Shown: positions 26,024-28,745 of the stretch, piece after piece | Position numbering within the stretch: position 1 is the first letter of the stretch | Layout: every line of letters begins with the position of its first letter | Source of the DNA: an uncultured Candidatus Saccharibacteria bacterium | GTDB taxonomy: Bacteria > Patescibacteriota > Saccharimonadia > Saccharimonadales > Saccharimonadaceae | Reading direction: 5' to 3' | Assembly (NCBI GenBank): GCA_948288625.1 | Contig: CAOHYA010000001.1 | Coordinates: 486,672 to 550,671, forward strand | Length of the DNA stretch: 64,000 nucleotides | The notes under the pieces: generated by a model | Databases searched by the model: none | What the model was told of the DNA's origin: nothing | What the model saw: only the letters and a program-made list of their open reading frames with translations | Made by a program: the position numbers and the translations under genes

Positions 26024-26052
26024 TTGAAAAATATAGTAATTTGTGCTATAAT
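26024..26052 (+). promoter_or_regulatory. Sigma-70-type promoter for the GC-rich two-gene cassette
   Basis: TTGAAA (26024-29), a 17-bp spacer, and TGcTATAAT (26044-52). It is followed by an approximately 150-nt leader containing an 11-bp hairpin ctgaggcattt/aaatgcctcag. Confidence 0.5.
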
Positions 26053-26210
26053 ATACCAGTTATCGTAAGGTAAGAAATGAATTACATAGCACATTAAAAA
26101 GCTGTATGTGAATTAACGGTAGTGCTGAGGCATTTGGACGATATACGCATATCGATAAATGCCTCAGTACTACTCGACGTCGATTCTAGCGATAGAAGGA
26201 AGAAGGTTTC

Positions 26211-27794
26211 ATGCTTTGGGCTCTGCTCATTACCGCTGCGGTCGTAGTGGTGACTGGTCTTGCGCTCAAGTTCAGTGTTCCATGGTTTCGTCCCGATACC
26301 TATTGGAGCATCACTTGGCGCGAATTTTTCGCGGGAGTTATCGCAGCAGGCTTGGTAGTCATTCCCTCGGTTTTCGCCGTCGGAACGGCTTTGTCCACCG
26401 CCGATGCGCTTACTTACGAGGAATTTTACAATGGCGTCGAAACCGATGCGACTGTCGCTGAAGTTGAGTGCCGCGCCGGAACCGAGGGGCAAAGTATTGC
26501 CTCTGGGTACAGTAACTGTTCTCACTCGTACAACACAGGTAAGTCGTACACGTTCACCGAAACATACACCGTAGAGGTGTCTGATGGATGTGATAGTAAC
26601 GGCAAGAACTGCAAGTCGCATTTCGAACAACGAACTCGCTTGGTCACGGCCTACATCTACAATCCGTACGCCACAAAGGAATACACGTACGCGATCACCG
26701 ATTCGCTCGGTGGTTCGTACCGCTTCCCCGAAACGTACGTGAAGGACGGTGAAGGCTATGGTGGTAAGGCGATTCCGAGTACCATTCCACGAGGCGATCC
26801 TGCCGAATGGACGAATGCACGGAAAAGACTTGACGAGGGTAATCCTCGCCCTGTCACACGGCTGTTCAGGTATGACAACTACATCCTGGCATCGCAAGAC
26901 GATCTGCTGAAACCGTTCAGCGAGAACGTCGAGCGCTACCTTGACGAAGGAATCTTGCCTGACCATACCGCCAACATCAAGTCTCAACCTCTTTACGGGT
27001 TTAACGACTCGTACGCCGACAAAGTAAGTTTTGTCGGCGTCGAGGTGAAGGACGAGCAGGCTTGGCAAGAATCATTGATGTCGTTTAACGCGGCGCTCGG
27101 CTCTCAGCTTCGAGGCGATTTGCACCTCGTGCTTATCGATGCTTCGTTGGTAGATTCGGCCACGGATTACGTGAACGCGTTGAAAGCGTATTGGCTCGGT
27201 GAAGACTTCGGTCGACGGGCTATCGCCAAAAACGCAATCGTCGTCGTCGTCGGCGTGCAAGGCACCACGGTTGAGTGGGGCATGGCCTCTACGGGCATGC
27301 CGTTCGGGAACGAAGTGATGCTCCAAGGCATCGAAAACTTCATGCCCGACACTCCGCTCGAACCGAGCCAGGTAATCGGCAGTCCTCGGACCGTCGTAAC
27401 GCCTGCTTCAAACGAGCAAGACGAAGATGAGCTGCGCGTGACCTTGGGTGAAACCCCCGGAGTATTGGAACGGATCGTCTTACAAGACTTCCCGTTCCAA
27501 CGTGCCTGCATGGAATGTAGCGATGATGAAGGTGAGATTGGTTATGCTAATCTCGTCGACAAAATCGAGCCTAAGCCATGGCAATGGGCCATCATGATTT
27601 CGATCGTGGGGGTGCTTGCGTTGGCGTGGTGGTTCTGTGCCGGTTTGTTCGACTTGTTCAATTGGCTACCGATTCCAAGCTCATCTCGTCGTTCGTTCGA
27701 TACGACCGACGAAGATTTTCCCTCTTCTTATTTCTCCCAATCCAGCAAGAAGCGGCTTCGCGATAAGCGTAAGTCGTTCCGAAACTTCTCGTAG
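26211..27794 (+). CDS. Membrane protein of unknown function (2 N-terminal TM, large Cys-containing ectodomain, C-terminal TM)
   Basis: GAAGGAAGAAGG SD. TM helices lie at residues about 3-25, about 40-62 and about 460-485. GC is elevated. I recognise no family. Confidence 0.6.
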   Translation: MLWALLITAAVVVVTGLALKFSVPWFRPDTYWSITWREFFAGVIAAGLVVIPSVFAVGTALSTADALTYEEFYNGVETDATVAEVECRAGTEGQSIASGYSNCSHSYNTGKSYTFTETYTVEVSDGCDSNGKNCKSHFEQRTRLVTAYIYNPYATKEYTYAITDSLGGSYRFPETYVKDGEGYGGKAIPSTIPRGDPAEWTNARKRLDEGNPRPVTRLFRYDNYILASQDDLLKPFSENVERYLDEGILPDHTANIKSQPLYGFNDSYADKVSFVGVEVKDEQAWQESLMSFNAALGSQLRGDLHLVLIDASLVDSATDYVNALKAYWLGEDFGRRAIAKNAIVVVVGVQGTTVEWGMASTGMPFGNEVMLQGIENFMPDTPLEPSQVIGSPRTVVTPASNEQDEDELRVTLGETPGVLERIVLQDFPFQRACMECSDDEGEIGYANLVDKIEPKPWQWAIMISIVGVLALAWWFCAGLFDLFNWLPIPSSSRRSFDTTDEDFPSSYFSQSSKKRLRDKRKSFRNFS

Positions 27795-27806
27795 AAAGGA
27801 TCCTTC

Positions 27807-28472
27807 ATGGAATGGATCAAGAAGCACAAAAGCCTCGTCATCATCGTGGCAATCGTTCTGACGGTCATCATCATCGTGCTGATTGCCGTCAGCTACACGT
27901 TCTCGGTGCGAAACCAAGGTGAGCGATACGAGCAGCGTCTGACGCAGCTCTATGGCGAGTCGGTCAATTCGTTGTCGACCTGTCTCGACCAAGGGCAGGT
28001 CGCGGCGCAAGTCACCAAGCAGGAGTTCGAGTCGATCAAGGAGATCCTCGTCGATGTCGCGGCTGCCCGCTATGTCGACGACGAGGGCGACACCACGGAT
28101 GCGTCGGAAGTTTTGGGGGGAGGATCACTCTTCTCCGGTCTTCAGGAGGCCTATCCGCAGATCGATCAGCGAAGCTGGCAGAACCTTCAGACCGTCGTGG
28201 TCGGGTGTCGTGACGAATTCCAGGGAGCTCAGAACCGTGTTTTGAACGAAGCGCGACTCTTCAACGAGTGGCGCGTGAGCGATGACCTGTTCTCTTCCTG
28301 GATCAAGCAGAGCTTCCCGTCCAACGAACTCAAGGTCGTGACCGCGAACGGTGACACCTTGTACGCCATGTCTGCCTACGACCGGATCACTCGGGTCGTG
28401 GCGGTTGACGATGCCAACGAGGCATTCGAAAGTGGCGAGCTCGGTGAACAGGATCTGTTCGGCGAGGAGTAA
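27807..28472 (+). CDS. LemA-like membrane-anchored protein
   Basis: N-terminal TM. The block LQEAYPQIDQRSWQNLQ...FQGAQNRVLNEARLFNEW resembles the LemA signature (E.YP.L...f..Lq....E..i..aR..yN). GC-rich. Confidence 0.45.
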   Translation: MEWIKKHKSLVIIVAIVLTVIIIVLIAVSYTFSVRNQGERYEQRLTQLYGESVNSLSTCLDQGQVAAQVTKQEFESIKEILVDVAAARYVDDEGDTTDASEVLGGGSLFSGLQEAYPQIDQRSWQNLQTVVVGCRDEFQGAQNRVLNEARLFNEWRVSDDLFSSWIKQSFPSNELKVVTANGDTLYAMSAYDRITRVVAVDDANEAFESGELGEQDLFGEE

Positions 28473-28518
28473 TTCACACACAGCGCAGCACGTAGCCACG
28501 TAGGTGGCGGCGTGCACA

Positions 28519-28558
28519 CCTGCGGAGGAATGAGTAGTTACTACTCTTCCTCCGCAGG
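28519..28558 (+). other. Very stable compound hairpin (12 bp + 6 bp) directly 5' of the hammerhead
   Basis: cctgcggaggaa (28519-30) pairs perfectly with ttcctccgcagg (28547-58). An inner gagtag/ctactc stem carries a tta loop. No T-run follows. Confidence 0.65.
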
Positions 28559-28559
28559 A

Positions 28560-28616
28560 TGCGTATCCGGAAATATATTTAGTTCCGCTGATGAGTCGTT
28601 AACGACGAAATATGCA
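28560..28616 (+). ncRNA. Hammerhead self-cleaving ribozyme, type III topology
   Basis: 5'-UGCGUAU-C^CGGAA[auauauuuag]UUCCG-CUGAUGA-GUCG[uuaa]CGAC-GAA-AUAUGCA-3'. The full C3-A9 core, G12A13A14 and U16.1-C17 are present. Helix I is 5 bp, helix II is 4 bp (G10.1-C11.1), and helix III is 7 bp (one G-U). Confidence 0.8.
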
Positions 28617-28714
28617 CTGTTATCCACATAATCAACAGATACGGCTACCGAACTGTTGTCAAAAATGTTTATGTTGCCGAAGTAGATAGCAACTTAATAT
28701 TTTAACTACTAAAC

Positions 28715-28745
28715 AAAAATACCTCTCGTGACGAGAGGTATTTTG
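28715..28745 (-). terminator. Intrinsic terminator after rplL (bidirectional shape)
   Basis: The stem tacctctcg/cgagaggta is flanked by an A-run and a T-run. Confidence 0.65.

Follow-up and report, generated by a model that had tools for sequence, protein, structure and literature searches.

The stretch analysed here, called the window, comprises 64,000 nucleotides (nt) from an uncultured Candidatus Saccharibacteria bacterium (contig CAOHYA010000001.1, positions 486,672 to 550,671 of the forward strand). Convergent to the gene rplL, it contains an operon of two open reading frames, ORF1 and ORF2, whose RNA carries two elements that are the subject of this report, namely a hammerhead ribozyme (HHR) placed directly behind a hairpin of the 3'UTR (UTR, untranslated region) and a long-range helix by which the 5'UTR would pair with the region around the ORF2 stop codon. 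As judged from comparison with related loci, the hammerhead is real, conserved and found in a new context, while the covarying helix is a newly recognised, predicted end-to-end interaction of an mRNA.

The transcription unit and its hammerhead ribozyme

The whole region is a single transcription unit driven by its own strong promoter, as had been proposed in a preliminary description of the same DNA. Its features are the following, in coordinates of the window.

26024..26052, plus strand: sigma-70-type promoter TTGAAA-N17-TGcTATAAT with extended -10 element, matching at 11 of 12 positions
26060-26210, plus strand: leader (5'UTR), about 151 nt
26089..26100, plus strand: single-stranded 5'UTR motif GCACAUUAAAAA (family consensus CAUUAACAA), adjoining the long-range arm on its 5' side
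26101..26115, plus strand: 5' arm of the long-range helix, GCUGUAUGUGAAUUA, predicted to pair with the stop-codon region
26118..26174, plus strand: leader hairpin of about 17+6 base pairs (bp), folding z -5.3
26211..27794, plus strand: ORF1, membrane protein of 527 amino acids (aa) with two N-terminal and one C-terminal transmembrane helices and a large beta-rich ectodomain
27807..28472, plus strand: ORF2, N-terminally anchored long helical-hairpin protein of 221 aa
28470..28484, plus strand: 3' arm of the long-range helix, UAAUUCACACACAGC, beginning at the ORF2 stop codon
28488..28515, plus strand: 3'UTR hairpin 1
28519..28558, plus strand: 3'UTR hairpin 2, 18 bp, free energy (dG) -29 kcal/mol, no T-run, predicted protective 3' end after cleavage
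28560..28616, plus strand: type III hammerhead, starting 1 nt after hairpin 2
28560-28566/28610-28616, plus strand: HHR stem III
28567, plus strand: HHR C17, with predicted cleavage between 28567 and 28568
28568-28572/28583-28587, plus strand: HHR stem I
28588-28594, 28595-28606 and 28607-28609, plus strand: HHR core CUGAUGA, stem II and GAA, respectively
28617..28680, plus strand: block of about 65 nt after the HHR, conserved only in L001 (4984-5050) and in the HHR-less L040 (about 5320-5385)
28716..28744, no strand assigned: bidirectional terminator hairpin, common to the operon and the convergent rplL
28771-29148, minus strand: rplL

Most of the layout given in the preliminary description stands. 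The promoter is indeed close to consensus, with 11 of 12 positions matching and the additional TG, and the TGnTATAAT form is kept 5' of ORF1 in relatives. The leader, put at about 150 nt, is about 151 nt long; the 18-bp compound hairpin without T-run lies at 28519-28558 and the bidirectional rplL terminator at 28716-28744. The leader hairpin is also present, but the 11 bp ascribed to it fall short of its real size of about 17+6 bp. A hairpin occupies this leader position in most lineages, with a differing sequence.

The hammerhead had been placed one nucleotide after the hairpin, and the full core is found there. Position 17 is C28567, in keeping with the requirement for a nucleotide other than G, and the pairs next to the core are all present (A28610-U28566, that is A15.1-U16.1; G28595-C28606, 10.1-11.1; C28568-G28587, 1.1-2.1). 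Stems I and II are capped by loops and stem III is open, which defines type III. Matched against the Rfam family RF00008 (Hammerhead_3), the copy in the window reaches 43.2 bits (E 2e-7 in 3 kb). Among the copies of relatives 1 of 16 reaches the cut-off of that family (L012, at 49.8 bits), which is probably the reason why these hammerheads are unannotated. The covariance model gives this single hit and no further hammerhead in the window, and two other CUGAUGA...GAAA strings proved to be chance matches. In the literature, no paper was found that links hammerheads with Saccharibacteria or Patescibacteria.

For the comparison, loci (numbered with the prefix L) were gathered through protein anchors and not through the RNA (genomes supplied 15 of them, metagenomes 17 and exact look-up 8), and hammerheads were detected by a motif scan followed by a covariance model built on 18 distinct copies. 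Among the 36 informative loci, meaning those that carry the ORF1-ORF2 pair and extend far enough, 23 have the HHR. The positive loci include many close relatives and represent about seven independent lineages, with about seven more lineages lacking the HHR. Each positive locus has exactly one copy, on the coding strand and downstream of ORF2, and the collected loci yielded no other hits. The synteny check suggested beforehand, whether the ribozyme is linked to this gene pair, therefore gives linkage in 23 of 36 loci, always directly behind a hairpin. The core CUGAUGA + GAA is invariant in the 18 family members. When the 18 different sequences are aligned, both partners vary in 12 of 16 pairs, each of the three stems contains compensatory substitutions, and 93.8% of the alignment cells are paired, compared with 17-46% when the partners are slid; none of 500 shuffles reaches the observed values. 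The HHR is kept even in lineages whose ORF1 is 31-36% identical to that of the window (L010, L012, L013 and L038). Loop positions, where a tertiary contact between loops I and II for activity at low Mg2+ might lie, are conserved within the main clade (loop I, AAAU...AG; loop II, U..A), while the loops of the clade of L010, L012 and L013 are short and different. The comparison is decisive in that, by the measure of sequence evolution, the window HHR is a genuine conserved hammerhead.

The hairpin in front of the ribozyme is an equally regular feature. In the window, hairpin 28519-28558 is followed by AUGCGUAU and thus lacks the U-tract of an intrinsic terminator. In all 17 non-redundant HHR loci stem III is preceded, at a distance of 0-5 nt, by a hairpin of 11-23 bp (dG -18 to -40 kcal/mol), and none of these hairpins is followed by a T-run. 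Cleavage would therefore leave a hairpin with a tail of 6-11 nt. At the equivalent position, the HHR-less loci L006, L007, L008, L035, L036, L037 and L040 have a hairpin with a T-run, and L009 is T-rich there. Of these loci, L040 stands close to the window, with 66% identity in ORF1 and matching rplL synteny. Searching the HHR-less loci for another ribozyme class with Rfam returned none at E<=1. The string CUGACGA in the 3'UTR of L004 and L028 was considered as a degenerate HHR and rejected, as it is part of the long-range arm. In a neighbour-joining tree of ORF1 rooted at the midpoint, clades with the HHR and clades with a terminator interleave on both sides of the root, a pattern that fits either an old HHR replaced several times or repeated gain.

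Conservation ends with the ribozyme. In the near-identical relatives L020-L024, L026 and L027 all similarity is lost immediately past stem III, where different genes follow; L016 and L018 have a terminator immediately behind the HHR, and other loci carry a convergent gene or an immediate terminator. Because the conserved part extends to the 3' end of stem III and no further, the HHR can be assigned to the upstream operon, and from the alignments the conserved unit is promoter, leader, ORF1, ORF2, hairpins and HHR. The RNA of about 180 nt that cleavage would release had been regarded as a product of interest, an idea that loses its ground since only the closest relatives share the sequence past the HHR. 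Judged by this distribution, the block at 28617-28680 lies outside the conserved RNA unit. It consists of GTTATCCACA (a consensus DnaA box, 28620-28628), N7, CAGATAC, N13 and GTTGTCAAAAAT. Read along the minus strand, the block gives TTGACA-N15-TATCTG and then the DnaA box, and it could therefore be an antisense promoter or a regulatory site. A DnaA-box cluster or oriC near 28620 was dismissed, as only one exact box is present and the window shows no enrichment. In relatives, the position past the HHR or terminator is a variable slot for a single gene, filled with DUF6602 (L021), NERD (L022), PIN_12 (L024), GmrSD_C (L034), DUF2726 (L026 and probably L001) or unknowns. The named fillers are of nuclease or defence type, and the slot of the window is geneless.

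The helix between the untranslated regions

The second element would join the two ends of the transcript. In the window, 14 of the 15 positions of the arms 26101-26115 and 28470-28484 can pair, a match that is borderline when taken on its own. Across the related loci, a helix of 9-16 bp is found that covaries over at least 10 sequence versions, whether the HHR is present or absent. Its position is regular: the 5' arm always stands directly 3' of a CAUUAACAA-like motif, and the 3' arm lies at the stop codon or shortly past it. The arms of other lineages differ in sequence while remaining complementary, as in GCUGUAUGUGA/UCACAUACAGC, ACCGUUUAUUUAU/AUAAAUAAACGGU, ACCGUUUACUUA/UAAGUAAACGGU and GCCGUUUGCUUA/UAAGCAAACGGC, and likewise in AUCGUUAGUUUGCUU/AAGCAAACUGACGAU, GCCGUACUACU/AGUAGUACGGC, AUCAUCUAC/GUAGAUGAU and UUUCAGCAACU/AGUUGCUGAAA. 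The motif itself is found in nearly all lineages compared. A general pairing partner for it was sought and none turned up; it could be a recognition site for an RNase or a protein.

RNAduplex gave loop-rich, uninterpretable results on long UTRs and was replaced by an ungapped-helix score combined with a cross-locus control. In this control, the 18 nt after the motif were scored as an ungapped helix against the stop region of every locus, leaving no choice of helix. The mean score is 27.1 for a locus's own stop region and 15.2 +/- 2.9 for those of other lineages, and the own region is the best in 20 of 24 loci. When 22 versions are aligned, double changes occur at each of the 13 pairs, 88.5% of the cells can pair, and covariation reaches a score of 0.95, compared with 0.25 after shuffling. 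This alignment was anchored on the helix at its 3' side, which makes the cross-locus control the cleaner of the two tests. Cofolding also yields the helix in its minimum-free-energy structures, with a predicted gain of -11 to -22 kcal/mol. The complementarity is of the extent, about 10 bp or more, that is expected of 5'UTR-3'UTR interactions of the hbs and icaR type. By analogy with these, the predicted role would be that of an RNA duplex altering RNase access, stability or translation.

Gene products, composition and surroundings

ORF1 and ORF2 represent two protein families of Saccharibacteria and their relatives that are adjacent wherever they are seen; in the window they are spaced by 12 nt. 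The AlphaFold2 model of ORF1 (predicted local distance difference test, pLDDT, 88.6) has helices at 2-26, 36-67 and 456-480, consistent with the two N-terminal and one C-terminal transmembrane segments noted earlier. No known domain or credible relative was found for ORF1 with Pfam, NCBIfam, PDB profiles or Foldseek against PDB; the best match of ORF1 was the lysenin pore (E 3e-3, TM 0.08). ORF1 belongs to a protein family specific to the candidate phyla radiation (CPR). For ORF2, the structure model has an N-terminal helix, and the same searches assigned this protein, too, to no known family. The label LemA-like that had been attached to it finds no support in Pfam, NCBIfam, PDB profiles or Foldseek: LemA (PF04011) was dropped as there is no Pfam match at E<=0.1, no NCBIfam match and no LemA structure in Foldseek. 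The PDB profile search of ORF2 at E<=1 gives apolipoprotein A-I (E 0.11) as its sole match.

The G+C content (GC) of ORF2 is 0.574 and its GC at third codon positions (GC3) 0.757, among the top 3 of 44 ORFs, while ORF1 is in the upper-normal range (GC 0.534, GC3 0.617) in a window of GC 0.486. The description of the cassette as GC-rich thus holds in part, the enrichment being mild and ORF2 a GC3 outlier. A GC3 of about 0.75 is also found in the ORFs at 2057-3607 and 33277-34410, both on the minus strand, the typical range of the window being 0.45-0.60, and ORF2 of L038 is so GC-rich that its public gene call sits on the wrong strand. The suggestion of an acquired module is refuted by the conserved Saccharibacteria/CPR gene pair with its promoter and leader, and by the position at rplL, which is kept in the clade of the window. 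An acquired GC-rich island was likewise ruled out by conservation and synteny, the GC3 of ORF2 being the lone outlier. In the window's clade the operon is convergent to rplJL at a conserved position. Placement next to rplL is thus the normal synteny of the lineage and not a local replacement of rpoB/rpoC, as had been supposed. By the same comparison, the gene pair is a vertically inherited Saccharibacteria operon for two envelope proteins.

Several neighbouring features were recorded. Upstream (22468-26016, plus strand) lie genes for a 761-aa protein with RCC1 repeats and a ricin-B-lectin domain and for two proteins with N-terminal pilin-type methylation motifs, a combination suggestive of a surface cluster that is pseudopilin-like or forms a type IV pilus. 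An ordinary ribosomal protein L10 leader (RF00557, 52.4 bits) stands at 29798-29945 on the minus strand, 5' of rplJ-rplL. Between the promoter region of rplJ and the L10 leader and the ORF at 30343-31485 there is a stretch of about 350 nt with about 60% GC (30020-30385, plus strand), preceded by a TATAAT-like box and ending in a terminator-like hairpin (30360-30378), with a folding z of -5.05. Neither an Rfam match (E<=1), a tmRNA or tRNA, nor blastn conservation in L001 was found for this stretch, which may be a non-coding RNA.

Proposed formation of the 3' end and comparison with known systems

The reading that we favour, and consider probable, is that of an operon mRNA that is stabilised and end-paired and obtains its 3' end by self-cleavage of the ribozyme instead of intrinsic termination. 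The ribozyme-defined mRNA processing raised in the preliminary description is, among the possibilities named there, the one best supported by the comparison, given the linkage in 23 of 36 loci and the hairpin that always adjoins. The motifs, their linkage, conservation and covariation and the positional rules are observed directly; self-cleavage in vivo and its stabilising effect are predicted from the sequences, and the role of end pairing is suggested by analogy with the hbs mRNA of Bacillus subtilis.

Under this reading, the strong extended -10 promoter would give rise to an mRNA of about 2.5 kb, in which 26101-26115 would pair with 28470-28484 and so join the ends, with a stable hairpin beside each arm. 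RNA polymerase would pass the T-less hairpin 28519-28558, behind which the HHR would fold co-transcriptionally and cleave after C28567. The mature mRNA would then end in the 18-bp hairpin and a 9-nt tail with a 2',3'-cyclic phosphate, predicted to be a poor substrate for 3' exonucleases. From the general properties of these enzymes, a hairpin with a short cyclic-phosphate tail should resist decay. The ribozyme body and all RNA downstream would detach with a 5'-OH. In this way, the HHR would take the role that a hairpin-plus-U-tract terminator has at the equivalent place in relatives, and the operon's 3' end would be freed from the fast-changing downstream region and, in the window, also from antisense read-through into rplL. 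More tentatively, and with somewhat less than even confidence, this may be the first case of a cellular operon in bacteria whose physiological 3'-end former is a self-cleaving ribozyme, interchangeable with a terminator and set within a phylum-wide 'closed-loop' mRNA; the helix adjoins the stop codon and could be opened by ribosomes terminating there.

Several observations weigh against this reading. The window's own helix carries one A-C mismatch. The helix also occurs without the HHR, and a functional connection between the two is our inference. The window HHR, at 43.2 bits, is below the Rfam gathering score of 48.5 and for this reason goes unreported in a standard scan, the threshold being one of curation and not a structural requirement. 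The HHR of L010 (8074-8130), with otherwise intact stems, has U15.1-A16.1 (GAAU) where A-U is normal; this copy may be a weakened or inactive variant, which suggests that cleavage is not always maintained. Finally, the HHR-less loci L004, L028, L034 and L011 have the hairpin with neither a T-run nor a known ribozyme, so that a defined 3'-end element is not universal.

Other explanations place the function of the ribozyme elsewhere. The HHR could serve its downstream side as an insulator or processing site, giving the next gene a ribozyme-capped 5'-OH end or directing RNase J to read-through RNA. Co-directional genes do lie 20-110 nt past the HHR in L002, L010, L013, L020-L024, L026 and L027, the type III topology leaves the ribozyme body on the downstream fragment, and for phage HHRs the processing of polycistronic RNA is what has classically been proposed (PMC3088659). 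However, a convergent gene or an immediate terminator takes the place of a co-directional gene in the window and in L003, L016, L017, L018 and L025; the genes that follow elsewhere are non-homologous and have promoter-like sites of their own, and it is the upstream hairpin and operon that are conserved with the HHR. Since some loci have nothing downstream, such a role cannot explain them all; it is unlikely in general and might apply where co-directional genes follow. Another idea is that self-cleavage, perhaps under the control of a ligand, a protein or the helix, lowers the expression of the operon as a decay or regulatory switch. The model would be glmS, the only well-understood bacterial self-cleaving ribozyme, which acts by triggering decay (PMC6765202), and the conserved nucleotides of stem-loops I and II could be contact sites. 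Yet the HHR stands 3' of both ORFs, and cleavage would take off only non-coding RNA and leave the very stable, protective hairpin in place, which makes a switch unlikely; moreover, an extra aptamer-like domain is absent and constitutive terminators replace the HHR in relatives. We rate this idea below that of a downstream role.

The two remaining explanations deny one element or the other a role in the mRNA, and both are regarded as improbable. The arms of the helix could be DNA inverted repeats of an invertible segment, the inversion of which would uncouple the genes from their promoter in a form of phase variation. They flank exactly both ORFs and exclude the promoter, and because recombining inverted repeats also co-evolve, covariation alone cannot separate them from an RNA helix. 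Of the three marks of such a system, namely repeats, a recombinase and both orientations, only the repeats are present: among about 40 loci none has the inverted orientation, and no recombinase is found among the called neighbours. The arms are also short (9-16 bp) and adjoin RNA hairpins, the 3' arm tracks the stop codon, and most non-Watson-Crick positions of the helix are G-U when read on the sense strand (about 7, against 2 A-C), which weakly favours RNA over a DNA inverted repeat. Least probable of all, the HHR could be a passenger, left behind where a phage or mobile element inserted at a hot spot of integration, with no part in the operon. Bacterial HHRs are typically associated with phages (PMC6155905, PMC3088659), and the variable slot past the HHR in relatives holds genes of nuclease type (NERD, PIN_12, DUF6602, DUF2726), but this slot is also present in the HHR-less L034, integrase or phage genes are not adjacent, and the position and compensatory evolution of the HHR are kept where ORF1 identity is 31-36%. 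A phage origin was also pursued by scanning IMG/VR for the core and stem II and was rejected, as the 15 phage HHRs retrieved have a different topology and lack ORF1 and ORF2; under the family covariance model they score 25-30 bits, against 58-82 bits for the family.

Bacterial hammerheads are mostly linked to phages and functionally orphan. Like the type III HHRs of RF00008, the family described here has the catalytic core, the three-helix junction, loop-closed stems I and II and an open stem III, with the same predicted cleavage after C17 that would leave 2',3'-cyclic phosphate and 5'-OH ends. It differs in being a lineage-specific subfamily missed by standard annotation and in occurring, in the loci collected, as a single copy without phage or integrase context, fixed in the 3'UTR of one chromosomal operon, where it abuts a hairpin and is interchangeable with a terminator in orthologous loci. 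For the HHR arrays of prophages, too, a role in dividing long transcripts into defined mRNAs has been put forward (Perreault et al. 2011, PMC3088659); these arrays contain multiple HHRs of mixed types among non-conserved phage genes, whereas here one HHR accompanies a conserved cellular operon and variability is confined to the downstream side. Roles of bacterial HHRs in mRNA processing and in 3'UTRs have been suggested and not established (PMC6765202, PMC3088659, PMC6155905), and a 2019 review names glmS as the only bacterial self-cleaving ribozyme with a well-understood function (PMC6765202).

With an intrinsic terminator the present 3' end shares a stable, GC-rich, end-protecting hairpin at the equivalent position in relatives, but it has no U-tract, and the end is predicted to form by self-cleavage 9 nt downstream and not by release of the polymerase. 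Evolution has here performed a comparative experiment, in which operon, promoter, leader and hairpin are constant and either an HHR or a U-tract terminator follows, and the purpose of a bacterial hammerhead becomes a directly testable question at this locus. If the favoured reading is true, chromosomal bacterial hammerheads would gain a function, namely the making of hairpin-capped, cyclic-phosphate mRNA ends and insulation from a variable downstream region. Both RNA elements sit on two conserved Saccharibacteria surface-protein genes, for which high expression and relevance to the envelope of these epibionts are likely.

To our knowledge, the helix is the only bacterial end-to-end mRNA interaction with deep covariation, and few such interactions exist at all. 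It resembles the helices of about 10-16 bp that join the 5'UTR and 3'UTR within one mRNA in B. subtilis hbs (PMC5737220) and Staphylococcus aureus icaR (PMC3868564). In the hbs mRNA, a 14-bp 5'/3'UTR helix next to a single-stranded RNase Y site controls access to that site and stabilises the transcript (PMC5737220). Support for those two helices is experimental, while in the present case it comes from covariation at the scale of the phylum. The helix described here also differs from both in spanning a two-gene operon of 2.3 kb and in having a 3' arm that overlaps or abuts the stop codon, and, unlike that of icaR, it leaves the Shine-Dalgarno sequence unmasked. Lastly, in many lineages it is joined by a 3' end that is predicted to be made by a ribozyme, a combination that sets it apart from hbs and icaR alike.

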